Under the pieces are notes generated by a model. The model was not told the origin of the DNA and made no database searches. It worked only from the letters and a program-made list of their open reading frames with translations. This document shows positions 594-63,379 of a stretch of 64,000 nucleotides of DNA, one piece after another (positions within the stretch are counted from its first letter, which is position 1; every line of letters begins with the position of its first letter). This DNA is from Amoebidium appalachense (lineage: Eukaryota > Protista > Ichthyosporea), in NCBI GenBank assembly GCA_963693365.1, contig CAVNZM010000002.1, positions 2,868,259-2,932,258 on the forward strand, in the 5' to 3' direction. Made by a program: the position numbers and the translations under genes.

Positions 594-2212
594 ATGCCGC
601 GCACAGCAGCGTCTATTGTGTGGGAACACTTTACGGTTGAACAGCAACCAGACGGCAAGCAGACAGCAACATGCAATTTCTGCAAACGCGCACATGCCGT
701 AAACGTGACACGCCTGCGCCAGCACTTGATTGATGACTGTCCCGACTGCCCAACTGAGACAAAGGAGGCACTACAGGATGATCCGGGCAAATACCAGAGG
801 GCAAACCGGGTGGAGGTACGCATCCCAATTGTTTTTGTCAATCTATTTTGTTAACCTAATACTTTGTTGTGTTGCCGGAGTGTGTAAAATCTTTAGACAT
901 CTACTTGGTGGATGGGTTTTACAGCCGCTTTATTGGCGTTTCTTGGGTGCTTGTCAAAAAGCTTATCAATCGGTCTAAGGTAAGCATTTGTTTAATGCGA
1001 TTTGGACTGGATGTTTGGAGCTGTGCAAATATTTTAGAGAGTTGTGCAAACGTCTGTTTTGCGAAATGTTTAGCTCCTGCTACACAGAACTCGTTAGCTC
1101 TTTTTCGTAAGGGGTCCCGGCTTACAAATTGTGTATGGCAGAAAATATACTAACAAGGAGTACCCCTGTCATATGCTGTTATCTGTAGCAACTTGACTTG
1201 GCAATGTGGTTTGCCTGTGTTGCCCCTAGTACCATCACCTCTTTCTTTCCCATGCTAGTTTTGGTGCACTGGCCTTGAAATACTTGTTTGACCAATCCCT
1301 CTTGTTTAAGCGTCTCTGTATATTTCTATGTTTGTGTTTTGTCGGGCCTAATATATCCACTACACATGAACTAATACGTGTTCAAAGGCAACTGTGGAGG
1401 TAACGACAGGATTCTTAGTCTTTGCTTTCTTACCTTTGCTTAAACCACTTCCAGTGTGTGCGGCCATGTGTCCCTATCTCCTTGTGTGTTTTCTTGTGTC
1501 GTCTTGCATGAACGAGGGAAGGGTGTGTATGTGTGTGTGTGGGGGGGGGGGGGGGGGGGAGGGGGGCGGGAGCGGGGGAGGGGGGGGGGGGTATTGGTGG
1601 TGCTTTTGAAAAGGGACGGGGGGGGTTGTGCTCATGCATGCTTAACGGCCTCCAGTAATGCACTTTACGTCCGTTCAAACACTATAGCCCACGGACCATG
1701 ACCTCACTAACATGTGCACACACACAGGGGGTGCCAACCATGACCCCACAGCTGCCGGAGCAGATCTCGCAGCCCCAGCAGATAATCCCCAACCAGGTGT
1801 TGGCCCCAGAATACAATGCCCCCGTCGTACAGCGGCCAAACCGCCTGCCGGATAAACTCTTCGGAAAGGTAGCTACACCTGTTTTTCCCTTTTCGGTTTC
1901 TTTCTTTCTTCCCTTCCCTCCCCCCCCCCCCCCCCCAACACACACACACACACACAAATGCACGATTTTCATAACCATTCCCCCTCCCCCCCCCCCCCCT
2001 CCACTCACACACCGTCCACACACCCACTCATACCCACTGACTCACACGCGCGCAAGCATGCTTGTACGTAGACACACCACAACCATCAAAACCCCCTGAG
2101 ACCGTGTCTCCCCATACATGTGTTACAGTAACTCCTTTGAGATGGTTGGCCAAGTTCTGTCCTCCTCACATGCAGTTTAGCTGCCTGTGTAGTGCCTTCT
2201 CCCCCCCCCCCC

Positions 2213-2243
<31 letters not shown>

Positions 2244-3435
2244 ACCTGACCCCACCACCTAGCCACCCACCCAGGTATCTGCCCCCATCACCCTTTTTGG
2301 GGCTCCCCCAGGGGGGGGGGGGGGGGGGGGGGGGGCTGGTGTTGTCAAAACAAGCCTGTGTGGAAGTTTCATATGAACTCCTCCGTTCCTGAACCTGCAG
2401 CAAGTCGGATTGATTAAAAGGAGATGCAATTTTAGCTGTTTTTTCAGTGAATGGCGGATCCGTGCATGATATATGTGCAACCAGATCGTTGGGAAGATTG
2501 TAACACCCAATGAGCTCACACCAACGTTTCACATCCTATCAAATCACATATCTCCTGGATTGCATTTGCATCGTTAGGGGATGTGATATGTCTAATGGTT
2601 CTTTAATCGTCGCATTTTTTTTCCCTCTGCTAACATGTGTGTGTGTGTGTGTGTGTCTAGGACGTGCCTATCCCTCCCCGTCCGGATGGTTTCCGCTACA
2701 GTGGTACCTCATCTTCATGGATCCAGATGGAAATATTCGTTGACCCCGTGTGCCCATACAGCAAGTATGTTTTCCAACATCCCAACCCTGTACTTCCATG
2801 CACACACACATACAATCACTTATGTACGTGTGCGAGAGCACACACACCCATATGTTAGCATTCTTTGCCCTGCTGCTATCTCCCCCCCCCCCCCCCCCCC
2901 CCCCCCGCATACAAACCCCCCCAGTCTTCTTTCAGAGGTGTCCTTTCAGGACAGACCACTGTGTGGAGACCGCTTTACTTCCATGCAACCGGGCATGGTT
3001 GCTCTGTGTCGTGCATCTGTAAGCACATACGCATTTTTCACTGCACTGCATTAGTTTGCACACACATATTCACCGTTTTGCTCACCTTGCTTGCATAAGC
3101 AACCCTGCTCGTCTTTGATCAAGACGGGTTGATCCTCCCAGTTCAGTTGATGCTGCTGTCTGAGTTGGAGAGTCGTATATATGCGGGCTAAGGGGTCGAA
3201 ACTCAGACGCAAATGATGACTTGGGCCCTCCCTGAGGATGGGCTCTGCTTATGACGCATACTGTGCGCATGGCTATGTTGCATACTTGAATGTTTGCCTT
3301 TGCAAGTGTCCTTCGTGTATGCGTACTTCGTACCGTGTTTCGCATTCAACCCCCCCCCCCCCCCCCCCCCCCCTCCTTTTCAACCCTCTACTGCACCCAT
3401 CTATACACCCACTCGAGTGTGTGCGTGCATGCATG

Positions 3436-3467
<32 letters not shown>

Positions 3468-3683
3468 CGTGTTCACACATACAGGGCACCCACACAACAC
3501 TCATACACTATTACACATGCGTGTGCGGGTACGCGCACACACATAGACACATATTTGGAAAGAGCACCCACAAACACACACAGTCATGGACGTGCACACA
3601 CACTCGCATTGTCCAGTCTGTCCTCATCTTTGTCGTTCCGTCATTGCTTACTGCTTTCTAGCGTTTGCTCCCACCCAAACCAA

Positions 3684-3714
<31 letters not shown>

Positions 3715-4155
3715 ACCCTCCCCCCCTCCCCATCTCCCTCCCCTTGTTCCCCACAAACTCTTTTACTTGCAATCTGCAGTAGGTCGTTGCTTCTCCTCTC
3801 ATCCACCACAAAATAATATGCTGTACGAGTAAAATAGGACACACTCTAGTACCCATGCTATTCCCTTCAGTAATCCCACACATGGATCAATCGGTAGTAT
3901 TTATAGGTGGAGGATTTCTAATGTGCCTTAACCCACAAATAGTAAAATGGTACTCAAGTGCCACAATGAAACACCCCAGTTTTCCTGCTTCTTGTTTAGA
4001 CAGTACCTATCCAGTTATATATCACATTACCAGTTGTCCACCAGTCCGTATTTACGGCAGCATGATAGAATGCCACTCTCATGACTGTGGCTTGCCAATC
4101 ATGTTAGCTGGCAGCAATATGAAAGGGCACGGGTGCATGCACTGGCGTGTGGTTG

Positions 4156-4196
<41 letters not shown>

Positions 4197-4986
4197 GCGC
4201 ACACACACACACAGGGGGGGCGTGGCTGCACATGAAGAGTGTGGCCATGCACTACCGCGACAAGGTGTCGATCCTCGTGCACATGTTCCCTTTGCCCTAC
4301 CACAACAACAGCTACTACATCTGCCAGGTATACAAGCCCCCTTCCCCCCCCCCCCCCCCCCCCCTCCCTCCCCCCGGCGCCTCGGAGAACTTTCCGATTA
4401 TCTTTCCCAATTCCGCACACACACGAGCGCGTACACACAGATTCTCTCGGGGAATCTGTACAGCTGTGTTACGCCTGCACACTTTGCTTGGATGTTCTGG
4501 GTTTATATTCATGTTTTTAGGGTATGCTCTACTTCCTTCAAGTTCTTTTCCCCGGGGAAAACACATTTCCTTACGACAGGGAAGCAAAAGAAAGGCACCT
4601 CCCCCCCCCCCCCCTTTTCACCCACACCTTCTTCCCAGCTGATTCGTGCCTGCACATTTCTTTTGGCTTCTCTTGTCCGTGTCCATATTTTTGTGGGTTT
4701 CTGTGTGTGTGTGTGTCTGTGTCTGTGTCTGTGTACTCGCACGTCTGTGTGCATGTGCATGCGTATTTGGTACAAACTCTGAACGCACACACGACACACA
4801 CACACACGTGCACACGTACACAGATCGGCACTACGCTTGGCAAGGAGCACACGCGTGCGTTCTTCATCTGGCTGGAGCACATCTTCACCAACCAGGAGTC
4901 CCTGACAAACAAGGCCACCTCCAGCTACAGCCGTGCACAGGTTGCAGCAATGCTGGTTCAAATGGGCGCAGAGGTCGGTTCTTTAT

Positions 4987-5027
<41 letters not shown>

Positions 5028-5308
5028 CTTCTCTTCCCCTGTCCTGTGTCCCCTTTCTCCTCCTTAGGTCTGCGGACGATTGAACCTCCTTGAGGTTGGC
5101 CTATTCTTCTGATGAATATATTGCCCCCCCCCCCCCCCCCCCCCCCTTCTCTCCCGCCCTGTTTTCCTTCCCTTCCCTTCCTCCTTCTCCTCCTGTATAC
5201 ACTATGTCCGCTTCTGTGTTTCGTACTTCTATTAACTGCACACAATCTGTGTCCCCCCCATCCTCCCCCCCCTCCCCCCCCCCCCCTCGAAACAGGCAAA
5301 CACACACC

Positions 5309-5383
<75 letters not shown>

Positions 5384-5776
5384 GAACCCAAAGCCAGCAG
5401 CATTCACATTTCGATAGTCCATCACGGCTTCCACCCGTTTCTTTGCTTATAGGCAAGGCATTCACAACGGTCGTGATTTGTGACGTCATACCGAACCTCT
5501 TTTGATTCCACTTCGCTAAACGCCGAGAATGGCGTATGAATCCGTGATTTCAGTGATAAATGCAGCGTTCTTCTTTTTTGTTGTCCCGTTATTTTTTTTG
5601 GGGGGGGGGGGGGGGGGTAGTTTTTTTCTTACCTTTCTTGCCCACGTCAGATTGGCCTTGGTGAGGAACGTATCAGCCATGCCCTCACCGACCCAGCCAG
5701 CGACCATGGTGCACGTGTCTCCTGGAAATATGGCTGCACGCGTAATACATCCCCCCTCCCCCCCCCCCCCCCCCCC

Positions 5777-5807
<31 letters not shown>

Positions 5808-6442
5808 CACGCACACACAACCACAACCACACCACACCACACCACCCCACTCACTCACTCACTCACTCACTCACACCCACACCCCACTCCACACCACCCC
5901 ACTCCACTCCACTCCACCCCACCCCACCCCACCCCACCCCACCCCACCCCCACCCCACCCCACCCCACCCCACCCCATCCCTCATTTCCTTAACCCATAT
6001 CACATGCGCTCAAATAGAGGGCCTCGGAAAGAGAAAGACGGTGTATATATGTATAGAGAGGAAGCGGTGGGGGTGGGGGGGAGGGGGGGAAAGAGAAGAA
6101 CACACCCACCTTACCATGAAAGCGGGATAATGGAACGTGCTTGTGGCTCATGTCGTTGGATTTGTACTGGTACTCCGTGCTATGCACCACACATTAAAAT
6201 CCCCCCGGTCCCCCCCCCCCTCTTTTTCCCGCACACGCAAGGGCGCGCACGCACACATCATTTCCTTCCAACCCCCCAACTGCCCAGTTGCATCTTTGGC
6301 CCTTGTGTGCATGGTGCTAGTTCTATTTCTGATCCCTCTGGTTTGTCTCTACCCAGGTGGTGTGAGTGGTACGCCCATGTTCCTTGTCAACGGCGTGATG
6401 GTCACGGGCTGTGCTACATGGGACTTGCGCAAGTGGCGCCAG
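594..6442 (+). CDS. Spliced gene: N-terminal BED zinc finger fused to a thioredoxin-fold (DsbA/Thioredoxin_4-like, CPYS monothiol) domain; exons 594-815, 1728-1868, 2661-2764, 4215-4327, 4824-4973, 5651-5741, 6357-6442; last exon/stop not located
   Basis: Exon 1 WEHF..ATCNFC..RLRQHLIDDC is a BED finger. Later exons read PPRPDGFRY..EIFVDPVCPYSK, VHMFPLPYHNNSY, WLEHIFTNQ, RVSWKYGCTR|GVSGTPMFLVNG, matching plant/algal thioredoxin-superfamily proteins from recall. All introns are GT-AG with CTAAC branch points at ~1706 and ~2630. Phases agree except at the G run 4214-4220, which is one G too long (homopolymer error, or a GC donor at 2761). Confidence 0.75.
3004..3349 (+). repeat. Interspersed ~350-bp structured non-coding repeat (copy 1) in intron 3 of the BED-Trx gene, ending in poly-C
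   Basis: Close reverse-complement match to 28364-28727; hairpins TTGCTT-gcat-AAGCAA, CGTCTT-tgatc-AAGACG and CGCA-tactg-TGCG. Confidence 0.85.
3158..3246 (+). ncRNA. Candidate non-circularly permuted hammerhead ribozyme (copy 1)
   Basis: GTCTGAG-T-T (3158-3166) pairs with GAAA-CTCAGAC (3198-3208) = stem III; GGAG (3167-3170) pairs with CTCC before the core CTGAGGA (3232-3238) = stem I; GGGGTC (3192-3197) pairs with GGCTCT (3241-3246) = stem II. Confidence 0.55.
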
Positions 6443-6550
6443 GTATGTCACACTGCGGATCTGCCTTTCTGTTTTTGTTTTGTTTTTTGTTGTCATTTTT
6501 TGTGTGTAGTTTGTGTGTGTGTGTGTCTGTGTGTTTTTTTTTTTGGTGGT

Positions 6551-6586
<36 letters not shown>

Positions 6587-6804
6587 CCGATGTGTATGAT
6601 GGAGGGATGTGTATGTCGTACCATGTTTTTTCCCTTCTTGTAACTTGATGTGGGCATGTGCGTGCACATGGGAGCGGACGTTGGATGATGTTGTCGGTGT
6701 TGTTGGACCTAAAACTCCGCTGGAGGGGGGGAGGGGGGGGGGGTGTAGTCTATGCAACCAAGATTCATAAGCCCACTGGATGATGACCCCCCCCCCCTCC
6801 CCCC

Positions 6805-6835
<31 letters not shown>

Positions 6836-6874
6836 ACACCACCACCACCACCACCACCACTAACACGCGCGAGA

Positions 6875-6975
6875 GGGTAAAGAGTCGAAACCCATGCTTT
6901 TGTGGAGGCTTAGGAACCCCCCTGATGATGGGCTCTGTTCAAGTGTTTTCGGCCTGCACGCTTGAATTGTTTGAT
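6875..6975 (+). repeat. Divergent 5'-truncated member of the hammerhead-like repeat family
   Basis: AGAGTC-GAAA-C ... CCCCC-CTGATGA-TG-GGCTCTG ... CTTGAATTGTTTG occur in the same order as in copy 1; stem II here has A-U pairs where copy 1 has G-U. Confidence 0.5.
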
Positions 6976-7477
6976 TTGGGGTTTCTCGCTTTTGGTTGCC
7001 TGCGGCGTCTGTTTGATGACCCTTGTTTTTCCCACCACACACAGTTGCTTGACCCCCTTCTCGGCATCTCCACCAGTTAGAGAGACATCTCGGTGCAACT
7101 AAAATAGGGATTTTCTTCTCGGAGGGCCAGGATTTGAACTTTGAATGGTGACGTCGGGACCTTGGAGTGCAACCTTCAGAACACTGATATCGCAGCATGA
7201 GTGGTGATTATTTGAATTAATAGTGATTTTTTTATTCATATTTTCAATATCCCTTCGGCATTTTTTGCTTCTACTTTTAGTCTTTTGTAACATATGCGCA
7301 CGATCTACCCACGGCTGCTCTGCACACGCACCCACATGCACGTGCCTTACACTATGACCCCCTCCTCGTGGCTTGCATTTGATTGGTTGGTTAGTTGCAT
7401 AACATCATTAGGTAGAAGTACAATCTCACATCCAGGAAACAGCTTCCTTAGGGTGTGTGTGGTTTTTTTTTTTTTTT

Positions 7478-9164: not shown

Positions 9165-10389
9165 ATGGCAACAAACGGAAGTGGAAAGTTTCGGGAGTCC
9201 GAAATCCCCAGCACCGTGGGAACATACCTGGCACGTCGCATGATCGATGTTGGGGTCAAGGATTACTTCGTCGTTCCGGGTGATTTCAATCTCATCCTTC
9301 TCGACGAGATCCTTCGTTTCCCCGAACTCCGCCTCATCTCCTGTTGCAACGAGCTCAACGCAGGCTATGCCGCCGACGGTTATGCGCGTGCCGCTGGCTG
9401 CGGTGTGGTTTTCACCACATTCACCGTTGGTTCTCTTTCTGCCATCAATGCCATCGCTGGTGCCTACTCTCAAGATCTCCCAGTCGTACTTGTTGCTGGT
9501 GGGCCTAACACGCTTGACTACGGGTCGGATCGTATTTTGCATCACACCACGGGCGAGGCCAACAGAAGCCAGGAGCTTCAATGCTTCAAGGAGGTAACGG
9601 CTAAAGCTATTGAGGTCCGTAATCCTCTTGAGGCACCGGCGCAGATTGATCTTGCTTTCTCTACCGCCATCAAGGAGAAGAAGCCCGTTTTCCTGTCCAT
9701 CGCCTGCAACATTGCCACGGCGCCTCTGTCCATGCCCATTCCCTTCCACATTGAGGGTGTCCGGGCCAGCAATCCCAACTCCCTCAAGGCGGCTGTTGAC
9801 GTGGTTGCTGACTTGTGGGCCAAGGCCGTCAACCCAGTCATAGTGTGTGGTGTCAAAACCAAGTAGGTATTCCCTGCGTTCTGCTTGCAAGGCATCAGAT
9901 CTTGATGGCATACGAGGTATACCCGTACGTATTGTAGCATATAAACAATGAATGGGGACCTTTTGCTTCTCTATGTTTCTCTTCGGCACATCTACCTCAT
10001 GCAACACCCGCTCTACCACCACCGGTCTCTGATATTTTTTTGTCTCCCATGAACACACGTTCGGCAAGCATGGTTGCCACAAACTCAGCCAGAAGGCAAT
10101 ACCATATACAGTACTCAACCGCTACAAATACAGCCCTAGAGATTGCACACGTCTCATTTCCTGCTATCCACTAATAATTTACTTCCACTTTTTTTTTTCC
10201 CCCCCTCCTTTTTTTTTTTGAATTATCGATTATGCCAAAAAGCAACTGTGTTCTTTCCCTACTAAGCCTGCCCTTTCCAGACCTCTCATGTTCTCGTATG
10301 CTTCCCCACGCACCACCACCACCGTGCCCGCGCGCGCGCGCACACACACACACACACCACCACCACCACCACCACTGCGCACGTACGCG

Positions 10390-10447
<58 letters not shown>

Positions 10448-11697
10448 AACCCACCCCAGCCCCACATATTGGTCTACATGTGCACACACTCGTCGTTCTC
10501 CCATCATTTTTTTTGACCGTTCCCCCCGCTCTTCCCTGCACACAACTCTAATCCCCCAGCTAGAAACCTTACCTGCCCCCCTTTTTTCTAACAATTTTCG
10601 AGGCTGTTGATCAGTCTTTCCTTACTCGACCATCCCCCCCCCCCCCCACCCCCCCCCCACCCCTCCAAACATATACCAGGGCAGGTTCTTCTTTGTGTCC
10701 TTACACCATGTCTCCTCAATCGACCACACACCTTTTATGTCTCCTCCCACTGATCACACCCTAATGCACCACCCCAACCCCCCTCCCTCTTCTTCCCCTA
10801 CCCACTCCCTGTTTCCACCGCCTCCTCCCTAATCAATCCCCCCCCCCCCCCCCCCAGCCTCCCCTCCCCCCCCCCCCCCCCCCCCCCCCCAATATCCCCA
10901 CCACCAAAAACCAAAAAAATTAAAAATTCACAGGCCGTGTGGAGCTATGGATGCAGTTGTCGAGCTTGCCAACGCCGGTGGCTGCGGCACGGCCATCATG
11001 CCGGATGCAAAGGGCATGTTCCCTGAGACCCACCCCAACTTCATCGGCCTGTGGTGGGGGCAGGTTTCCTCCCCAAACACCGCCGCCGTTGTCGACTCCG
11101 CCGATCTTCAGCTGTTCGTTGGCCCAGTTTTCAACGACTACAGCACCGTCGGATACACGTCACTGCTCAAATACAACCACATGGTTCAGATTGGAAAGGA
11201 CCGCGTCAAAACCGCAAAGGGAGAGTTCGGGTGTGTCTACATGGCTGAGTTTGTTCGCGAGCTTGCCAACCGGCTCGTTGTGAAGGATATGTCTCTCAAG
11301 ACATACCGTCGTCTCCAGTCTCACGAACCTGAACGCCCCTACGTTCCTAATACTGAAGGTGCGGCACTTACGACACGAAACATCGACCGGCAGGTGCAAG
11401 GTTTGCTCAGCTCCGACACTGCTTTGATGGTAGAGACCGGTGATTCCTGGTTCCATGGCCAGAAAATGAACCTTCCCGAGGGGTGCCTGTACGAATTCCA
11501 GATGCAGTATGGGTCTATTGGGTGGTCTGTGGGGGCCCTTTTGGGCTATTCCATGGCGCTCCAAGGCAAGAAGAGGTGCATTGCAATGATTGGTGACGGG
11601 TCATTCCAGCTCACGGCCCAGGAGGTGTCGACCATGATCCGCTATGATTTGGACCCAATCATCTTCCTCATCAACAACTTTGGTATGCCCCGACCCC

Positions 11698-11732
<35 letters not shown>

Positions 11733-11979
11733 TCCCCTCCCCTCCTCCCCAATCTCACCTCTCACCCTCCCACACCTACCCTGTTACCCCCCCCCCCCCC
11801 CCCCCTCCCCCCGCCTTTATGACGCGTCCCCCCCCCCCCCCCCCCCCCCCCGATGGGTCCAGGAACCCAACCCTTGATCCATACTGCCCTTTCTTTCGTT
11901 GATACTTTCTTCCATATGTATACTATTTTCTAAACTTCACGTTTTCCTTACACCACTCACCCACTAATATCCTTCCACA

Positions 11980-12013
<34 letters not shown>

Positions 12014-12358
12014 CCTCCCTTCTCTCCCTTTCACTCTCCCTGCAAGGTAACTTTTTTTTCAACCCTACCAAATTCTGGGTTTTCCTTGCGGCCTTTCTGC
12101 TTTCCACCCTACAACAAACTACTAAACACACTACCTTGCCTCCTTGTTTTTTTTTGTTTTTTTTTGATTTGTAGTACAGAAGTCCCAATGCTAACCGCGT
12201 GTTCCTCTGCCCCTCCCCCACCCCCCCCCCCCCCCCCCCCCCTTCCCCCCTCCCCCCCACCTCCCCCCCACACAGACACACACAAATTCTGGTTCCTCCC
12301 TCTTGCACACCACCACCATCCACCATCCACCCACCCTACCCTATGCGGTGCATGATCC

Positions 12359-12393
<35 letters not shown>

Positions 12394-12503
12394 TTCCCCT
12401 CCCCCTCCCCCCCTCCCGCCGGCGTGTGGCTACATCACACAAACACACGCACACACACGCACACACATTCTCATGTACACACACACATGCACACACGCAC
12501 ACG

Positions 12504-12560
<57 letters not shown>

Positions 12561-12876
12561 TACACACACACACATTCCCCCACATCGTTCAGGCTACACT
12601 ATCGAGGTCGAGATCCACGACGGCATCTACAACAACATCAAAAACTGGGACTACGCCGGCCTGGTGACAGTCTTCAGCGCCGGGGAAGGAAACGCTAGGA
12701 GCTGGAAAGTGAAAACGGAGGAAGAATTGGTGAAAGCGGTTGCAGAGGCAAAAGAACACAAGGGGTTGGCCTTTATCGAGTGCATCACCGAGAGAGATGA
12801 TTGCACAAAGGAACTACTCGAGTGGGGCACCCGTGTGTCTGTGGCCAACGGGCGCCAGAGGGATATCCATGGTTGA
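9165..12876 (+). CDS. PDC: Pyruvate decarboxylase (TPP-dependent 2-oxo-acid decarboxylase, plant/Zymomonas-type); exons 9165-9862, 10934-11682, 12593-12876
   Basis: Motifs [56 protein letters not shown] motif [26 protein letters not shown] and ELLEWG; both GT-AG introns are phase-consistent. Confidence 0.95.
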
Positions 12877-25987: not shown

Positions 25988-31521
<5,534 letters not shown>

Positions 31522-34789: not shown

Positions 34790-35723
34790 TGTTAAATTAT
34801 ATAAGTATTTGGGGTGAAAGCAGAGACACAGTGGTGCAGTGTGAAAACACCACAGACACACACAACAACAAAACACGGAACGATCGGAGCAGTGTACACA
34901 ACAGACATCAATGTTTAGACACGACTGAACTCAATTTATTTTGATCGTGAATAAATACCTGAAATTCCCTTAAGTTAAATCCATACATGATTTCCGACCA
35001 GTCGGAAATCAGATCTATGTCTAAAATAACCAATCACAATTAACTGATTATTTCCCGGATAGATCCGGAGACACAGGAACGCACACCATAGGTCACAGCT
35101 ATAAGAAAGAAATGAGGTGAAGAGTAACGAGGAAAGAGGTGATGTTTCTAACCTATCATCGGCTACAAAGACTCAGACATTTTCTGACTAAGTCCACTGA
35201 TTGGATACAGTACGGCAACACACAAAACAAAAGTGGTTGACTAAGCTATGAATCATACCTGACAAGCTAAAGTGTAACCTAAGTGTTTTTCTACCAATCA
35301 AAACATAACGAGTAATATAAATCTACTCAACGTATATTAGTGAGAGAGAAATATAATTATGTGAAAGGAAACAAGAGAAGAAAGAAAGAGAAAAGAAAGA
35401 AGAAGAAAGAGGAAAAAGAAAAGAAAGCAGGACAGAAAACACGAACAGCAAAACACAGTTATAACCGAAGATATTCATGTACACATAACATGTACACGTT
35501 TCTCCCTCACTGGGTAGACTCGTGTACCTATAATCAGTTGCTGTAATCGATATCTAAACACACGAATATAGCCGACACAACACGATTACAAGTACTCAAA
35601 TACTCTGGAGATCGATGTCATAATTTACGTACAAGGAGCACATCTCTTTCACTAAGTAAATGAATGAAAACATAACACGAACTGAGAAGATCTTACAATA
35701 TGTAAATACTACGTATTACAACA
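34790..35723 (-). mobile_element. Solo LTR of the Copia-A family
   Basis: Reverse complement of LTR 53138-54072 with some substitutions; TGT..ACA ends; 5-bp TSD GGCAG (34785-34789, 35724-35728). Confidence 0.93.
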
Positions 35724-35859
35724 GGCAGTCAGAACAGGCCGGCCGGGTGTGTGTGGGGGGTGTATTTGTTGGTGTTTTGGGTTTTTGGAGAGCCATACTT
35801 TTCTTTCTACGGGTGGTGGGTATATGGTGGTGTTTTTGCATTTTGGGGTGGGTGGGGGG

Positions 35860-38800
35860 CCGCCCAGCCTGCAGGCCCTGCATGGGCTACCCGGCCAGCA
35901 GCAACAAATCACACCCACACTGCAGCAGCTGCATGCAGCAGCAGATTGCAGCCCCGGCCGGCAGGCCCAGCACGGGCCACCCAGCCGACAGCACCAACAG
36001 GAGCAACCAAGCCAGCAGCAGCAGCCGCAGGCTGAAGCCCAAGCAGGCAGCCCACACCGGCAGCCAAAGCAGGGGCCACCCCGCCTGCAGACCCTGCCAG
36101 GGCCACCCACGGGCAACCAACAGCTACAGACCACACCCACCCAGCCGCAACGGCCCACAGCAGCAGAGTGCAACCCTGGCCAGCAGGCACGGCACGGGTC
36201 ACCCACCCTGCAGCAGCACCCCACCCCCCCAGCAGCCCACCTGTCTCAGACAGGGAGGCAGTGGGAGGAGTGGGAGGCAACCATGCGGGAGCAACTACAA
36301 CTATACAGGTCCCAACTCCGAAGGAAACGGCAAAAACTCCTTTGGCTACGGGCAACAGCAGCAGCAGAAGCACGGTGCAAGCGTATGGTGGACGAACTCC
36401 GGCGAGCACTAATCAGCATTTTAGACCGGGGGAGTGTGAACGTCTCGGCTACGTTAGTCAAGCACGTCACCCCAACGGGCACTGAGTACCTCACGGAGTG
36501 GGCTGACACGGAGCCCGTCATTCGTGAAACTTATCACCGGTGGACGGCCCGCAGGAACCCACACATCGAGGAGATGCTCGCCGACCCAATGTGGGCCGAC
36601 ATCTATCGACCGATCCCCCCCGAAGACTCCGAGTCCCCATTAGGGTCTATAATGCACCCGGCCACCCACGACGAGCTCCAACAGATCGTCCAAAGCCGAC
36701 GGGGGGGGAAGGCCCCCGGCCCAACGGAAATCCAGTACGAATACTTCCAACACCTGGGGCCAAAGGGGCTAGCATGGCTCCTACATATCATCAACGGATG
36801 TCTGGCCACGGGGACCACACCGAGGTCATGGCTGCACCACACCATCCATCCCCTACCGAAAGGGGAATGGGAAGGTGACTTCGACAAAACCCGACCGATA
36901 GCACTCTTGGAAACGGCACGGAAGCTGCTAGAATCGGTCATCAACCAGCGCCTACTCTCGATCTTCCGGCAGTACCCCACCCTCCTCCCGGGGGGGAATT
37001 TTGGGTTCGTGCCGGGCCCGGGTATCGACGGGGCGCTGGCTATCATCCGAGAGACGATAGAGGATCATCCATAGACCACGACCAGGAACTATGGATCGTC
37101 CAACAGGACATTAAGAGGGCATATGACACGGTGTCTTGGCCCTCGGTGGAACTGGGGCTCACCCGCCTGGGCACAGACCCCCAGCTAATCACCCTCCTCC
37201 GGCACATGTGGCACAGTCGTACGGCCACGGTGTGCACAGACCAGGGGCACACTGAGTCTTTCCCTGTTGAAAACGGCCTGGCCCAAGGGGCTGTCCTCTC
37301 CCCCATTCTGTGGATTATTTTCTACGATCCAGTTTTAACAGCCATCAAAAGGCACGGCAAGGGGTACACTTTCCACCTACCCCCACAGACACAGCACCAC
37401 ACACCGTGACCGGCACAAACACCCCCGTGTGTGACGTCTGTAGCCTTCGCCGACGACACAACATGGTTTGGCCCCAACAAGGAGAGCATCCAGCAAACTC
37501 TCGATTTATCTGCCCCCTTTCTTTATTACCATGACTTGGAACCACACCCAGACAAGTTTTCAGTCCTCGCCCGTGGTACCCCAACACGGGCAACAGTGGC
37601 CCCCATGCAGTACCGCAAATCCCCGGGAGCACCACCCCTACCCATTCAGATCGAGCTCCCCGATGCGCACATCAGAGTGCTAGGGGTCAACATCACCCTC
37701 CAACGACACACCCGGCCCAACGATGGGAAGGCCATGCAGCTGACATTACGGGCCACCACCATACTAGCCCGTAAAATGCTGGCACCCAGCCAAGTGATCT
37801 ACGTAGCCAACAGTGTGGTGGCCCCGGCCATCCTCTTCCTCCTCAAAGGGTCAGTCATCAGCAACACCACCATGCAGGCAATCGACAGCAAGTGGAGAGA
37901 CCTACTCCGTCGGAAGTGTGGTTTCCACCGGAGCACCCCGTCCGGGCTGCTACACCATCCCACTCTAGGGGGACTGGCCAGCATCGTCGAATCAGCAGCC
38001 AGCACCATGGTTACGGAGCTGTGTGCCCTGCTGGAAACACCAGGACCAGCAGGGGACGTGGTCCGGTACCGAGCCTGGCAGCAGCAACACGTGACAGGCC
38101 TACCCTACCCACCCCTGCAAGCACCCCCAGCCAAACTTTACAGGTTAGGGGGAAAGCAGCTCCACAACTATTGGGCCCATATCACGGGGATCCTTCACGA
38201 GCGGCACCTGAGTATTGGGGAAACCCCTCCCCAAAAGACACAAGCACCCCCACCCCCCCCCCCCCCTCCCCCCAAGGAGAAGGAGGGGGAAGCAGCAACA
38301 ACAACCAGCACCCCTATCAACACCGTTTTCCCGGACCACACCTTTGCGGCCCACATCGGCCCCCACACACACCCCCGTCAACTCTACACGGTGGAGGACA
38401 CCATGGTACGGCCGGGGGTGTTCCGGGCGTTCCCCGAACTGCCCCACCCCCCAGACCTACTACACCCGGGAGCTACACAGTGGTACAGGTCCATCATCAA
38501 GGGGGCCATCCCCATCGCAGACAAACTACGGCCAGCACCCAGACCACACACCCACCACACCATTGACCTCGTGCCAAACCACCCCGTCGGTGCATTCGTG
38601 GTAGAAATAGTCAAGAACGGGCAATACGAACTCAGCCAGGTGGTGGCCCACACCACCCACAACGGGGAGGCTTGGGTCAAAATAGCCCATCTACGGGACA
38701 ACACAGAGGAGGAGGGGCTGAGATGGCACCGACCCACGTGGAACGACCCACATGGAACAGGCCATTTCCGCTTTTGCCCTGGTGACTGCAAATACGGCCA

Positions 38801-39963
38801 CTCCCCATGGAACCTAGCCTACACCCCGGCCACCCTCTCCCCCAACCCCGGGTACGCAGACGGAGAGGGGGAAGGGTTAGACACGGAGCCAGAATCGGAG
38901 TCGACGGGGCCCAGCGACGACTCCGACGACTCAGAGGACTCTAACACCGACAGCACCAACAGCAAATACGAGCCCCCTGAGCCCCCAGCGGATAATCACA
39001 CCCACAACAAGCAGTGTGTGGGGTGGACCCGTGCTGTGGAGGTGATACGGGCAGACCCCTACGTGGCCTTCGAAACCCGAATCACCACCCACATGGTAGT
39101 CCCGAAGTACCACAAGGACTTCATCAACACCGACAGTATCGACATCTACCAAGTCATCGCACTGAAGGATGGCTCCGATCCGGCCGAGCAGTGGAGGAAG
39201 ATACACCATTTCCGGCGGCATCTTCCCCCCCACCAACAGGCATCACCCCAGATGCTCCACCTGCAAGCCAACGAGGAAGCCACACCCTTACCGGGGGACC
39301 TCCCCGGCCCACCCCCCCCCCCCCAGCAGCCACCACCGGTAGGGTCACCACAAGGACACAAGTGCACGGCCCACCCGGCTGACCTGCCGAGCCCACCCAC
39401 TCCCCGTAGGCTCACCTACACCGACTTGGTGCCCCAGGCCACCTATGACGAGTGGCAGCAGCAAATCACCCTGATCCCCCCAGACCAACCGATCACCGTT
39501 TATACGGACGGCAGCCTCATCCACCCGGGCAGGAGGATGATAGCCCAGGCCGGAGCCGGGGCGGTACTGGACACCCCGGACCGGAAAGCACCTCCAGTGA
39601 CGGCCAAGACCAGGCTCCATACGGCGCTATCATCCACCCAAGCCGAACTCACAGGGGTACTACTAGCTCACCCCCACCACCACCCCCATCCACATCAAGC
39701 TCGATAACCTCGGAGTAGTCGACCGATGGACGGCAAATATAGACCCCACCACACCCCCTCGACGCAAGCTAAAGTTCCCCCACATAGTGGAATGGGCTCA
39801 CGTACGAGACCAACTCTCTCTCCGGCAACCAGGCTCTGTACAGGTATCGTGGGTGAAGGGGCACCAATCCAACACCAAACGGTACGGTCAACGGAATAAC
39901 GAGGCAGACAAGGCAGCCAATGCAGGAAGAGTCCTCCCCCTCCCCCCCCCCCCACCTCCGGCC

Positions 39964-39994
<31 letters not shown>

Positions 39995-40977
39995 AATACT
40001 TCCTACGACTACAAGGCCACCGTATCCCCGGCAACATTCCCGGTACACTGAACCGGTTGAACAAGGACTTCCTCACCGACATGGCCGGCAAGACCAAGGC
40101 TATGTCCATACTAGCCGACCCCAGACTGCTCCCAGCCGAACGGAACCCCCTCAAGCTCAACAAGGGGCCCACACAGGCAACCATCGGGGCAGTCAGAGGA
40201 AACACTCGTAGCCTGTCCCTGGCCATGGGCACCCTGCCTACCATGGCACGGCTACACCGAGATCACCCCACCGTCGTTACACAGCCCACATGCCCCCGGT
40301 GCAGCCAGCACCCTGAGACCACCACCCACCTCTGGGCCTGCCCGGGCCATGCCGGGGAAGTCCCCACCCTGACCACCGCCATCACAGCCTGCATCCACAA
40401 CGTCCTGCACACTCGTCATCCAAACACCCCCACGGCACAGCACCGCCATACGGCAGCCACGGTGGTAGACCAATGTGCAAGGATAAACTGGATAGGAGGC
40501 AACGGTGACCCACCTGACCCCGAAGACACCAAGTGGGTCGAACGGGGATTCTGCCCACGATCGGTGGGCCCACTACTTGCAGCCACCGGCACCACCAAGA
40601 CCACCACCCGGGCCATCTTAGGAAAAATCACAGTAGAGTTGCAATCCTTTTTCTTTTCAAAAATTTGGCACCCACGGAACACAACACTCCCCCCCACCCA
40701 CCCTAACATGCAAAAACACCACCATATACCCACCACCCGTAGAAAGAAAAGTATGGCTCTCCAAAAACCCAAAAAACCAACAAATACACCCCCCACACAC
40801 ACCCGGCCGGCCTGTTCTGAATGCCGGAACACCTACAGACCCGGTGTGCCCTGTAAAACCCACCTTTTAGTCCACAAAAACATCGCCACAACATACGTAC
40901 ACCAACACATAATGTTAGGCAGCAACCCCCCACCACCACCACCACCACACCCCATCATCCACCCATACCCACCGTAA
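35860..40977 (+). pseudogene. Disrupted LINE ORF2: reverse transcriptase, unknown Cys/His domain, RNase H, C-terminal zinc finger
   Basis: KAPGPTEI, TRPIALLETARK, QDIKRAYDTV, GLAQGAVLSPILW, VAFADDTTW; RNase H VYTDGS..QAELTG..WVKGH..NNEADKAA; CPRC..ETTTHLWAC; breaks at ~37070, ~37408 and ~39665. Confidence 0.9.
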
Positions 40978-41303
40978 ATATTATACACAACACCTAGGAC
41001 TTCCCAATACTGTAGATCGACCAATGAGAGCCCTCGGTTAACGTTTATTGCTAGGTTTTGAATGGAGGGGAGGACTGGAGCCTCCTAGTGCCGGCGTGGC
41101 TGGGGTAGTAGCCCTGGGCAAAGTGTGTACTTATAGTTAGGTTGTGAAGGATGGTTTAGCTTAGCTGAACTCATAGATAGCACCTTAACTAGTGTACTGT
41201 CGGTGCTGTGTGGTAGACGGTAGTTTCCCTAGAGGGCCTGAAAAGGCCCTCCGGGAACAAAACGTGATAAAATAAAATAAAAATAAAAAAATAAAAAAAA
41301 AAA
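35860..41303 (+). mobile_element. Second LINE copy (5'-truncated) inserted into the minus-strand copy of the same family
   Basis: (TAAAA)n/A tail at ~41268-41303; TSD TGGGGGG at 35853-35859 and 41304-41310. Confidence 0.88.
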
Positions 41304-44042
41304 TGGGGGGGAGTGTTGTGTTCCGTGGGTGCCAAATTTTTGAAAAGAAAAAGGATTGCAACTCTACTGTGATTTTTCCTAAGATGGCCCGGGTGGTGGT
41401 CTTGGTGGTGCCGGTGGCTGCAAGTAGTGGGCCCACCGATCGTGGGCAGAATCCCCGTTCGACCCACTTGATGTCTTCGGGGTCAGGTGGGTCACCGTTG
41501 CCTCCTATCCAGTTTATCCATGCACATTGGTCTACCACCGTGGCTGCCGTATGGTGGTGCTGTGCCGTGGGGGTGTTCGGAGGACGAGTGTGCAGGACGT
41601 TGTGGATGCGGCTGTGATGGCGGTGGTCAGGGTGGGGACTTCCCCGGCATGGGCCGGGCAGGCCCAGAGGTGGGTGGTGGTCTCAGGGTGCTGGCTGCAC
41701 CGGGGGCATGTGGGCTGTGTAACGACGGTGGGGTGATCTCGGTGTAGCCGTGCCATGGTAGGCAGGGTGCCCATGGCCAGGGACAGGCTACGAGTGTTTC
41801 CTCTGACTGCCCCGATGGTTGCCTGTGCGGGCCCCTTGTTGAGCTTGAGGGGGTTCCGTTCGGCTGGGAGCAGTCTGGGGTCGGCTAGTATGGACATAGC
41901 CTTGGTCTTGCCGGCCATGTCGGTGAGGAAGTCCTTGTTCAACCGGTTCAGTGTACCGGGAATGTTGCCGGGGATACGGTGGCCTTGTAGTCGTAGGAAG
42001 TATCCCCCCCCCCCCCCCCCCCCCCCCGGGGCCGGAGGTAGGGGGGGGGGGAGGGGGAGGGCTCTTCTTGCATTGGCTGCCTTGTCTGCCTCGTTATTCC
42101 GTTGACCGTACCGTTGGGTGTTGGATTGGTGCCCCTTCACCCACGATACCTGTACAGAGCCTGGTTGCCGCACAGAGAGTTGGTCTCGTACGTGAGCCCA
42201 TTCCACTATGTGGGGGAACCTTAGCTTACGTCGAGGGGGTGTGGTGGGGTCCATATTTGCCGTCCATCGGTCGACTACTCCGAGGTTATCGAGCTTGATG
42301 TGGATGGGGGTGGTGGTGGGGGTGAGCAGGAGGGCTACTAGTACCCCTGTGAGTTCGGCTTGGGTGGATGATAGGGCCGTATGGAGCCTGGTCTTGGCCG
42401 TCACTGGTGGTGCTTTCCGGTCCAGGGTGTCCAGCACAGCCCCGGCTCCGGCCTGGGCTATCCTCCTGCCCGGGTGGATGAGGCTGCCGTCCGTATAAAC
42501 GGTGATCGGTTGGTCTGGGGGGATCAGGGTGATTTGCTGCTGCCACTCGTCATAGGTGGCCTGGGGCACCAAGTCGGTGTACTAGTAGTGAGCCTACGGG
42601 GAGTGGGTGGGCTCGGCAGGTCAGCCGGGTGGGCCGTGCACTTGTGTCCTGGTGGTGACCCTACCGGTGGTGGCTGCTGGGGGGGGTGGTGGGCTGGGGA
42701 GGTCCCCCGGTAAGGGTGTGGCCTCCTCGTTGGCTTGCAGGTGGAGCATCTGGGGTGATGCCTGTTGGTGGGGGGGAAGATGCCGCCGAAAATGGTGTAT
42801 CTTCCTCCACTGCTCGGCCGGATCGGAGCCATCCTTCAGTGCGATGACTTGGTAGATCATGTCGATACTGTCGGTGTTGATGAAGTCCTTATGGTACTTC
42901 GGGACTACCATGTGGGTGGTGATTCGGGTCTTGAAGGCCACGTAGGGGTCTGCCCGTATCACCTCCACAGCACGGGTCCACCCCACACACTGCTTGTTGT
43001 GAGTGTGGTTATCGGCTGGGGGCTCAGGGGGCTCGTATTTGCTGTTGGTGCTGTTGGTGTTAGAGTCCTCTGAGTCGTCGGAGTCGTCGCTGGGCCCCGT
43101 CGACTCCGATTCTGGCTCCGTGTCTAACCCTTCCCCCTCTCCGTCTGCGTACCCGGGGTTGGGGGAGAGGGTGGCCGGGGTGTAGGCTAGGTTCCATGGG
43201 GAGTGGCCGTATTTGCAGTCACCAGGGCAAAAGCGGAAATGGGCTGTTCCATGTGGGTCGTTCCACGTGGGTCGGTGCCATCTCAGCCCCTCCTCCTCTG
43301 TGTTGTCCCGTAGATGGGCTATTTTGACCCAAGCCTCCCCGTTGTGGGTGGTGTGGGCCACCACCTGGCTGAGTTCGTATTGCCCGTTCTTGACTATTTC
43401 CACCACGAATGCACCGACGGGGTGGTTTGGCACGAGGTCAATGGTGTGGTGGGTGTGTGGTCTGGGTGCTGGCCGTAGTTTGTCTGCGATGGGGATAGAT
43501 GGCCCCCTTGATGATGGACCTGTACCACTGTGTAGCTCCCGGGTGTAGTAGGTCTGGGGGGTGGGGCAGTTCGGGGAACGCCCGGAACACCCCCGGCCGT
43601 ACCATGGTGTCCTACACCGTGTAGAGTTGACGGGGGTGTGTGTGGGGGCCGGTGTGGGCCGCAAAGGTGTGGTCCGGGAAAGCGGTGTTGATAGGGGTGC
43701 TGGTTGTTGTTGCTGCTTCCCCTCCTTCTCCTTGGGGGGAGGGGGTGGGGTGGGGTGGGGGTGCTTGTGTTTTTTTTGGGGGGGGTTTCCCCAATACTCA
43801 GGTGCCGCTCGTGAAGGATCCCCGTGATATGGGCCCAATAGTTGTGGAGCTGCTTTCCCCCCTAGCCTGTAAAGTTTGGCTGGGGGTGCTTGCAGGGGTG
43901 GGTAGGGTAGGCCTGTCACGTGTTGCTGCTGCCAGGCTCGGTACCGGACCACGTCCCCTGCTGGTCCTGGTGTTTCCAGCAGTGCACACAGCTCCGTGAC
44001 CATGGTGCTTGCTGCTGCTGGCCAGTCCCCCTAGAGTGGGAT
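41304..44042 (-). pseudogene. LINE ORF2 fragment (thumb, unknown domain, RNase H, zinc finger) of the host copy
   Basis: ORFs 42621-44003, 41532-42572 and 41185-41538 match the plus-strand copy, with frameshifts. Confidence 0.88.
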
Positions 44043-44121: not shown

Positions 44122-44194
44122 GATCTCGTAGCTCAGTTGGTAGAGCACTCGACCGGAGATAGAGGGGTCGCGGGTTCAAATCCCGTCGGGATCA
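44122..44194 (+). tRNA. tRNA-like Pol III unit in TRIM LTR1 (73 nt; GGA at the anticodon position; probably derived from tRNA-Phe)
   Basis: Acceptor GATCTCG/CGGGATC+A; D arm GCTC-AGTTGGTA-GAGC; AC arm CTCGA-CCGGAGA-TAGAG (one mismatch, C33); T arm GCGGG-TTCAAAT-CCCGT; A and B boxes intact; T5 terminator 2 nt downstream. Confidence 0.75.
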
Positions 44195-44491: not shown

Positions 44492-44565
44492 GATCTCGTA
44501 GCTCAGTTGGTAGAGCACTCGACCGGAGATAGAGGGGTCGCGGGTTCAAAATCCCGTCGGGATCA
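44492..44565 (+). tRNA. tRNA-like unit in TRIM LTR2
   Basis: Same as the LTR1 copy with one extra A in the T loop. Confidence 0.7.
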
Positions 44566-61261: not shown

Positions 61262-62125
61262 GGTGATCAATCAGTCAGATGATGCGTGAGAGAGGAATCA
61301 GATCGGTATTCAAATTTGAATATTTTTGATTGCAGCGAGAGTATGTGTTGCGAGAGCGTGCGAAAATGGGCCTTTAACCTGTTGTTTTGTACGGGTCTAA
61401 GGGAGCAGAGTGCACAGAGGTGTCATGTAAAACACGACTTAACACATTAATGAGAGGGCAATCGGAGTTGTTCACGAGACATTGAAAGATTTCAAACAAC
61501 AACTGAATCTTTATTGTGCTCTCGGTTCCTTTTGTACTTGCGACTTATCACCTTATCACAACTAAAGAGGGAGAACCAATCGGTTCTATCAGAAGATAGA
61601 AAAACACATTCCGACAGAGCATACGCATTCCAACTTCCGATTAAACTAAAGTGTAGGAACTTTTACTTAAATAAATTAAGTAATTATACATCTATTCACT
61701 ATTAACTCACATATATATTTATGTTCGTCTCTGTAAAGAAACTTATTTAAATACATATATTTCCTAACAGTCGACACTCTCAAAGTGAAGACACTTTGCA
61801 ATAAACCGAATTCCATATATATCTATTGTCCAATCACAACACACATATATTAACAGACAGGAATGCACAACACAATCTACAGATGTACTCGCTCGCGACT
61901 ATTGGCGAGCCATCCTTTTGAGAACAAAACTAGGCCATTTTGAAATAAAGGAAAGACAACGAGTGAGGCTAGCCAATCACGCTACCTCTCAGATAAACAG
62001 AGGAGAGCAAACAGAAATAAAAACACAATAAGTTCTTATCAGGCAAGAGAGCCAGGTGTGCACAGATCTATCGATATCTGTGCCCACAGAAACAAGGGAG
62101 AGAGACATACGGGGGGGGGGGGGGG

Positions 62126-62243
<118 letters not shown>

Positions 62244-62335
62244 ACAAAGGAGGAAAGCAGACACGAATACAAACAAGCTAGGACACATACATACTTCAAG
62301 GCTCTTGCTGTCATACATGGTGACGTATTCCAACA

Positions 62336-62953
62336 GGGATGGTGTAGCAGCCCGGACGGGGTGCTCCGGTGGAAACCACACTTCCGACGGAGTAGGTCTC
62401 TCCAATTGCTGTCGATTGCCTGCATGGTGGTGTTTCTAATAACTGACCCTTTGAGGAGGAAGAGGATGGCCGGGGCCACCACACTGTTGGCTACGTAGAT
62501 CACTTGGCTGGGTGCCAGCATTTTACGGGCTAGTATGGTGGTGGCCCGTAATGTCAGCTGCATGGCCTTCCCATCGTTGGGCCGGGTGTGTCGTTGGAGG
62601 GTGATGTTGACCCCTAGCACTCTGATGTGCGCATCGGGGGGCTCGATCTGAATGGGTAGGGGGTGGTGCTCCCGGGGATTTGCGGTACTGCAGGGGGGCC
62701 ACTGTTGCCCGTGTTGGAGTACCACGGGCGAGGACTGAAAACTTGTCTGGGTGTGGTTCCAAGTCATGGTAGTAAAAAAGGGGGGCAGATAAGTCGAGAG
62801 TTTGCTGGATGCTCTCCTTGTTGGGGCCAAACCATGTTGTGTCGTCGGCGAAGGCTACAGACGTCACACACGGGGGTGTTTGTGCCGGTGTGTGGTGCTG
62901 TGTCTGTGGGGGTAGGTGGAAAGTGTACCCCTTGCCGTGCCTTTTGATGGCTG
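62336..62953 (-). pseudogene. 5'-most fragment of the host LINE (RT, FADD motif)
   Basis: TSVAFADDTTWFGP..RKCGFHRSTPSGLLHHP; joins 44042 across the GGGAT TSD. Confidence 0.9.
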
Positions 62954-63379
62954 AAAGAGGACAAGAGAGGGAGAGTACTTTGAGCTGCAATGCGTTGACC
63001 ATTGCCATATGGCCTTCGTTGAATATTCGTACGTGACGGTCGAAAGCGAACGCGAGAGGATGGGGCGGGGGGGGGGGGGGGGGGGGGGGGGAGGCTACAT
63101 TGCCGGGAGAGGAATGAATGAAGCCGTCGGAGGGGGGGGCTGGGAGGGGGGAGGAGTGGGGGGGGGGGGGGGGGAGGGAGAGAGAGAGAGAGATCTAGAG
63201 AGAGGGATAGTAGAGAAGTAGAGATCGTCGGGCGGGCGGGGGGGGGGGGGGGGGGGGGGGGAGGGAGAGAGAGAGAGAGAGAGAGAGGCTGGGAGAGGGC
63301 GATGGGGAGAAGAGCGGAGATCTCGACTCGGAATGAGAGAGGGAGGGGGGGAGAGAGAGAGAGTCTAAGATCTAGAGAG

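Follow-up and report, generated by a model that had tools for sequence, protein, structure and literature searches.

A hammerhead ribozyme core in S-G-C order within an intronic repeat family of Amoebidium

An intron of a zf-BED/DSBA-domain gene of Amoebidium holds, at positions 3158 to 3246 on the plus strand of the window (by which we mean the whole 64-kb stretch of DNA that was analyzed), the three blocks of a hammerhead ribozyme, namely, S (cleavage), G (GAAA), and C (CUGAnGA), arranged in the order S-G-C. The motif is a real hammerhead core arrangement in this order, and it lies in copy 1 of a repeat that we call family 1. That the fold has been selected as a hammerhead is, in our judgment, highly probable. 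Judging from its sequence features, we also consider it probable that the repeat is retrozyme-like and, equipped with an SGC hammerhead, spreads as the non-autonomous partner of a Naiad/Chlamys-type Penelope-like element. What is new is the occurrence of an SGC-order core in the genome of a known organism, whereas the examples in the available text of PMC10085705 come from environmental RNAs only.

Architecture of the hammerhead core

A previous sequence-only reading of this DNA had proposed three hammerhead strands with complementary arms, and each of them was found where it had been placed. Block S (3153 to 3170, plus strand) comprises the 5' strand of stem III (3158 to 3165), a GUU triplet, U17 (3166), and the 5' strand of stem I (3167 to 3170), and the predicted cut would fall after U3166. 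A 21-nt S-G linker (3171 to 3191, plus strand), with a 10-nt palindrome at 3174 to 3183, leads to block G (3192 to 3210, plus strand), which is made up of a stem II strand (3192 to 3197), GAAA (3198 to 3201), and the 3' strand of stem III (3201 to 3208). Block C (3228 to 3246, plus strand) contains the 3' strand of stem I (3228 to 3231), the sequence CUGAGGA (3232 to 3238), U9.1, and the other stem II strand with one extra G (3240/41 to 3246). In hammerhead numbering, U16.1, U17, G12, and C3 correspond to positions 3165, 3166, 3198, and 3232. CUGAnGA, GAAA, and UH are thus all present in copy 1, together with the A15.1-U16.1 and G10.1-C11.1 pairs, and they are kept in a second family, family 3. 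Stems I, II, and III have 4, 6, and 8 to 9 pairs, respectively, with stem II bulged by the extra G.

The order of the blocks, which the same reading had described as a non-circular permutation, equals the experimentally validated type SGC (PMC10085705, available text). The self-complementary linker that it had pointed out was likewise recovered, and its palindrome is perfect in copy 2 and in the family-1 majority sequence, because the majority letter at 3182 is C. As for stem I, the GGAG/CUCC helix stood, whereas the AUGAC/GUCGU extension suggested for it is less well supported than a separate predicted helix between stems I and II (I-II helix), whose 5' strand (3222 to 3226, plus strand) would pair with its 3' strand (3247 to 3251, plus strand).

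Descriptor search and controls

Both strands of the window were scanned with a descriptor that accepted all six block orders, and exactly two matches were obtained, both in S-G-C order: copy 1 and, on the minus strand, a second one at 28564/28532/28498, each with stems of 4, 6, and 9 pairs. Of 200 dinucleotide shuffles (2-kb blocks), none gave a match with the stem lengths kept at the observed 4/6/8, while with stem lengths relaxed to 4/4/5 and 3/4/5, 2 and 10 of the 200 matched, respectively. The descriptor works, since it recovered ordinary type II (GSC) hammerheads in three phage loci used as a positive control (contigs L120, L133, and L180, with two each in L133 and L180). An Rfam search of the motif region matched no hammerhead model, as is expected for a non-nested order.

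The family pattern gave no match in metagenome and viral contigs. Looser patterns found at least 115 and 79 loci there, with 42 of the 64 metagenome parts covered, and among the 194 loci listed, no element-like sequence was detected by blastn. The descriptor matched eight times in these 194 loci; five matches were the type II hammerheads of the three phage loci, and the remaining ones, one each in SGC, SCG, and GCS order, look like chance.

Copies of the repeat and their genomic context

Copy 1 (2906 to 3357, plus strand) consists of a 435-nt unit plus a 17-nt terminal redundancy (2906 to 2922 and 3341 to 3357), that is, a 17-nt direct repeat at a spacing of 435. Its 5' boundary is a (C)n tract (2882 to 2905, plus strand), and a second (C)n tract (3350 to 3373, plus strand) follows the unit. 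Copy 2 (28364 to 28727, minus strand) is 91% identical, contains a complete S-G-C core, and is bounded by C-runs; it is 5' truncated and begins about 100 nt into the unit. A possible short remnant of the 3' tail, ending in a C-run, may lie at 29493 to 29519 on the minus strand (15/16 in a blastn match with an E value of 0.75, hence weak). Genomic copies finish at C tracts and span the predicted cut site intact. In the one frame of the 435-nt unit that was scanned, no Pfam match was found.

Public contigs placed on 2910 to 3345 number 8,489, 6,717, 3,884, and 5 in four runs (these are contigs, not copies) and show that family 1 is a large, variable family. Runs containing it are 20, from 7 studies, and none is recorded as RNA. 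Head-to-tail joints from 3345 to 2912/2913 occur in runs X1 and X14; from these joints and the truncated copies, it follows that the unit exists as tandems and as dispersed, 5'-truncated copies.

The intronic location of the repeat, already proposed in the sequence-only reading, is borne out by a transcript-derived protein. In particular, tblastn of this protein (P0121) delimits an intron at 2765 to 4214 on the plus strand, and because the transcriptome protein splices across 2765 to about 4215, copy 1 is intronic and sense oriented. The protein encoded by the host gene (594 to 7077, plus strand) joins a BED zinc finger at its N terminus to a DSBA-like thioredoxin domain and matches an Amoebidium parasiticum transcriptome protein with 100% identity in exons 594 to 815 and 4821 to 4970. 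The final intron of this host gene holds a copy of family 3, copy 3. By our reading, copy 2 is also intronic and sense oriented, in a minus-strand gene for whose model Pfam gave no convincing support. We did not count the sense orientation of the intronic copies as evidence, since the copies are few and C-runs are strand biased in two of three host introns. Within the host gene, the G-run after the splice acceptor (4215 to 4220) exceeds by one base the length expected from the transcript-derived protein, and the extra G is likely a homopolymer error in the assembly. A host exon used as query against PDB sequences found no match.

Other features were noted elsewhere in the window. A frameshifted non-LTR element with reverse transcriptase and RNase H occupies 35660 to 44030; its 3' end recurs in inverted orientation at its 5' side, further inverted partial copies are present, and another non-LTR fragment lies at 62042 to 63194. 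Beside the element at 35660 to 44030 are two near-identical tRNA-like sequences, 370 nt apart (44122 to 44194 and 44492 to 44565; Rfam scores of 57 and 52 bits). Three reading frames of copia-type LTR retrotransposons (RVT_2, integrase, and gag) lie in mixed orientation between 50049 and 61270. A pyruvate decarboxylase frame (9168 to 12873, plus strand) shares 78% identity with an Ichthyophonus protein; outside the ichthyosporeans, the named proteins closest to it are plant and bacterial enzymes, at 50 to 60% identity, and it may possibly have been acquired horizontally.

Covariation between families

Copy 3 (6864 to 6960, plus strand) contains only the G and C blocks, being 5' truncated inside the S-G linker, and the spacing of these blocks is the same as in family 1. 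If the fold is real, the missing S block must complement 6890 to 6900 and the C-run before the core of copy 3. Public contigs placed on 6850 to 7010 were 824 in run X1, 16 in X9, 2 in X19, and 0 in X14, and the S block was supplied by the loose-end consensus before 6864, which derives from 23 X1 contigs and one each of X19 and X9. According to this consensus (agreement of 0.71 in X1, with pairings read by eye), the S block forms 11 consecutive pairs with 6890 to 6900, keeps the GUU triplet, and provides three G-C pairs in stem I. The distance from U17 to G12 is 30 nt in family 3 versus 32 nt in family 1.

An alignment of the two families shows pairing retained in 21 of 21 aligned pairs, with four double compensatory changes (two in stem III, one in stem I, and one in the I-II helix) and five single pair-preserving changes; this covariation rests on two families and not on a many-sequence statistic. 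The four helices can thus all pair and covary. For stems I to III alone, whose covariation between copies had been suggested as a check on the core, the two families support each stem, with three double and three single pair-keeping changes. In stem III, the family-1 pairs A-U, C-G, and U-A correspond to G-C, A-U, and U.G in family 3; stem I has A-U in family 1 and G-C in family 3; and in stem II, two U.G pairs of family 1 are replaced by U-A. Stem I is short, with 4 bp in family 1 and 3 bp in family 3, where the fourth pair has no counterpart. In the I-II helix (3223 to 3226 with 3247 to 3250, compared with 6914 to 6917 and 6937 to 6940), there are one double and two single changes, and the family-3 majority letters at 6910, 6947, and 6951 would, as read by eye, lengthen this fourth helix by about eight pairs. 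Identity between the families amounts to 5/5, 7/8, and 7/7 in the core and stem II strands, while the tails (9/40) are at chance level. The linker of family 3 carries a different palindrome, of 6 nt.

Some further sequences resemble parts of family 3. A possible decayed remnant of the G and C blocks may lie at 28849 to 28940 on the minus strand (nhmmer E value of 0.034 with the family-3 query); the match is weak, the C3 position is changed, and there is no S block. Two contigs placed on 6902 to 6950, one of 2,389 nt in X19 and a high-depth one of 1,174 nt in X9, have the family-3 C block close to the 3' end. Their sequence upstream of this block is different, no GAAA occurs within 30 nt of it, and they are possible autonomous or longer elements. 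Yet another family, whose stem I strand differs, appears as a loose end in X9. Finally, a 121-nt X19 contig spans the family-3 cut site; X19 is RNA only by guess, and we set this contig aside as RNA evidence because contigs reveal neither strand nor ends.

Proposed mechanism and alternative explanations

In the mechanism that we propose, stem III would be the first helix to form, closing a hairpin loop of 31 nt, and the C strand, anchored at both ends by the I-II helix, would then pair with both halves of the loop on either side of CUGAnGA, giving a double pseudoknot. Cleavage would release unit-length RNAs from tandem transcripts, and these would be religated as circles. A Penelope-type reverse transcriptase might use a genomic G/C run facing the internal C7 tract of the unit for priming and copy the circle or an uncut multimer; priming and copying of this kind would produce copies that end at the C tract, cross the cut site intact, and, as in copy 1, extend over more than one unit. 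A Penelope-type partner for the repeat appears likely, and because no Penelope frame was found in the window frames scanned (neither reverse transcriptase nor GIY-YIG in 65 of 434), it is a partner that we infer.

Nested folding gave a stem III probability of 0.84 to 1.0 in short contexts and of 0.0 to 0.01 with 3076 to 3100 included, and forcing stem III in longer contexts costs 3.1 to 5.3 kcal/mol. An upstream competing strand (3084 to 3097, plus strand), which could represent an off-state, pairs with 3179 to 3195 in a duplex of -17.7 kcal/mol that would block stems III and II, and an alternative hairpin at 3223 to 3245, with CUGA in its loop, was always favored (0.94 to 0.95). The folding was done with ViennaRNA, which cannot score pseudoknots, and the result is therefore not decisive. 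As modeled, the competing folds suggest slow or regulated cleavage rather than none, and the family-1 copies are probably slow cutters, since two competing helices can hide the core. We give copy 1 somewhat better than even prospects of cleaving in vitro.

It is possible to hypothesize, although we regard this as unlikely, that the fold was selected in an ancestor and that family 1 is now dead or near-dead, trapped in the C-block hairpin, its copies arising from passive target-primed reverse transcription of uncut transcripts. The probability of 0.95 for the alternative hairpin and the upstream competing helix would agree with such a loss, but the SGC ribozymes published in PMC10085705, as far as its available text goes, are slow (0.007 to 0.19 per min in vitro) and yet active. 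The predicted cut site spanned intact by the genomic copies would agree with it as well, and so would the tolerance of sense copies in introns, with a spliced host-gene transcript in existence; however, the strain behind that transcript may or may not carry the copy-1 insertion. Variation inside family 1 bears on both sides. In three deep runs, 22 of 436 positions vary at at least 3% of depth, five of them in 3158 to 3246, and none of the 40 positions of the core and of stems II and III is among them, which speaks against a dead family; only about 2 variants were expected there, so that this lack of variation is not significant, and the core thus shows no significant excess of conservation inside the family. 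The only variant of the I-II helix, 3226 C>U, stands opposite a G and keeps the pairing, which also speaks against decay. One pair of stem I would be lost through a 3229 T>C variant (13 to 35% of depth), except if this variant comes from a sibling family, of which only loose ends were seen. This sibling family has a different 3' strand of stem III, with loose ends before 3215 and after 3262 (81 to 102 contigs per deep run), and its G-block motif is absent from the 64-kb window.

A rather improbable alternative to the monomeric double pseudoknot is an active dimer joined through the palindromic linkers, in which each S-G loop would be served by the C strand of the other unit, as in minimal Penelope hammerheads. 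Tandem units are present, and the linker homoduplex is predicted at -13.8 to -16.6 kcal/mol, versus -1.3 to -1.9 kcal/mol for the linker hairpin; families 1 and 3 both have a palindrome there, of 10 nt and 6 nt, but palindromes of 6 nt are not uncommon in linkers as long as these, about 20 nt. Dimeric hammerheads have a weak stem III, whereas stem III is long here, at 8 to 11 bp. Dimer-enhanced cleavage is known for axolotl retrozymes (PMC7229834, available part), but the SGC RNAs of PMC10085705 are described in its available text as cleaved in single-ribozyme constructs.

That the ribozyme is real but serves another route, the repeat being mobilized by a LINE or being a plain satellite instead of a Penelope derivative, seems very improbable. 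The window does contain a non-LTR element with reverse transcriptase and RNase H and with duplicated, inverted ends, and no Penelope frame was seen among the 65 frames scanned; however, the similarity between this element and the repeat is a chance-level match, the descriptor found no hammerhead in 35660 to 44030, and family 1 has no poly(A) tail, while (C)n targeting and partial tandems fit Chlamys as described in the available part of PMC8557442. Finally, it is hardly credible that the blocks are arranged by chance, that they form a canonical type II hammerhead, or that the motif is a C/D snoRNA in an intron: no shuffle matched at the observed quality and covariation follows the hammerhead helices; there is no S block between G and C, and the descriptor recovers type II in the three phage loci; and, in spite of the intronic position, the C/D-box matches of Rfam at 3209 to 3253 are far below threshold (best 17.9 bits versus a gathering score of 45), and the box-C-like word needs an A at 3213 that is private to copy 1 and is absent from family 3.

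A high-copy genomic SGC family in a cultured protist offers a large natural alignment for covariation, and Amoebidium is a host where cleavage and circularization can be assayed.

Comparison with known systems

Type SGC was defined by Eckert et al. 2023 (PMC10085705), with five examples and four helices validated in the available text, as a double-pseudoknotted monomer in which stems I and II are connected by a helix between their free sides. The Amoebidium motif shares with it the S-G-C order, the intact CUGAnGA/GAAA/UH core, the U after A9, the G10.1-C11.1 pair, and the I-II helix. Different from the type SGC of that text, known from metatranscriptome RNAs only, with none in genomes of known organisms, the Amoebidium family is genomic and high-copy in a cellular organism. 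The descriptor given there fixes CUGAUGAUG or CUGAUGAG and limits the S-G linker to at most 8 nt and the G-C linker to at most 15 nt, and family 1 lies outside all three limits. In particular, the S-G linker has 21 nt and a palindrome here, versus typically 3 nt in SGC/HRIMA-1, and the G-C linker has 19 nt; N7 is G in family 1, versus the U fixed by the SGC descriptor; and the extra G in stem II and the GUU triplet are further differences. The Eckert descriptor would thus miss the Amoebidium copies because of the linker length, N7, and the stem II bulge. The strict HRIMA-1 motif has a fixed 5-bp stem I and occurs in RNA only (PMC10085705, available text), whereas stem I here has 3 to 4 bp of other sequence and the repeat lies in a genomic intron and in DNA runs. 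On its order, core, and helices, the Amoebidium motif appears to be a member of the SGC permutation class and not the HRIMA-1 motif. This implies that ribozyme censuses confined to types I to III undercount eukaryotic genomes.

In the literature searched, which covered few subscription journals, Eckert 2023 alone deals with SGC, no prior report of a genomic SGC hammerhead was found, and nothing links Amoebidium to hammerheads or to Penelope. The word "ribozyme" is absent from the available text of the Amoebidium genome paper (PMC11244446), non-circular permutations are merely cited in that of PMC13725137, and Ichthyosporea are not mentioned in the available parts of Craig et al. 2021 or its supplement (PMC8557442).

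With the non-LTR retrozymes, as presented in the available parts of PMC7229834 and bioRxiv 10.64898/2026.07.22.740005, the repeat shares a non-coding unit of 150 to 450 bp with one hammerhead per unit and the occurrence as tandems and dispersed monomers, including intronic copies. A short, non-coding unit, both tandem and dispersed, is therefore found in Amoebidium as in retrozymes, and the type I hammerhead is not. Those elements belong to metazoans and carry type I hammerheads, whereas the present one is ichthyosporean, of type SGC, with (C)n ends, and known from DNA contigs.

The Naiad/Chlamys elements were described as lacking canonical hammerheads, some Naiads carrying unexplained "half cores," and Chlamys targets (C)n and (CA)n and has 5'-truncated, head-to-tail, non-autonomous forms (Craig et al. 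2021, PMC8557442, available text). The Amoebidium repeat resembles these Penelope-like elements, and also non-autonomous derivatives of them such as MRC1, in its 5' truncation, its partial tandems and terminal redundancy, and the lack of a canonical hammerhead, and the C-runs at its copy ends recall the (C)n/(CA)n targets of Chlamys. In particular, copies 2 and 3 are truncated, copies end in C-runs, and a 17-nt redundancy is present. The S-G-C order offers a testable answer to why the Naiad/Chlamys elements seemed to be without hammerheads. Tentatively, and with somewhat less than an even chance in our estimate, S-G-C hammerheads could be the standard ribozyme of this N-terminal-endonuclease branch of Penelope, from animals to their unicellular relatives; Amoebidium would then have abundant circular RNAs from several families, and RNA-only SGC replicons may descend from such genomic elements. 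In the part of the PMC8557442 supplement that was available, inspection by eye of octopus Naiad 3' ends revealed the S-G-C order in two of them, with stems I and III paired and with the same GUC-GAAAC and CUGAUGA-UGG junctions as in Amoebidium; stem II has only about two pairs in the octopus elements and is longer in the Amoebidium motif.
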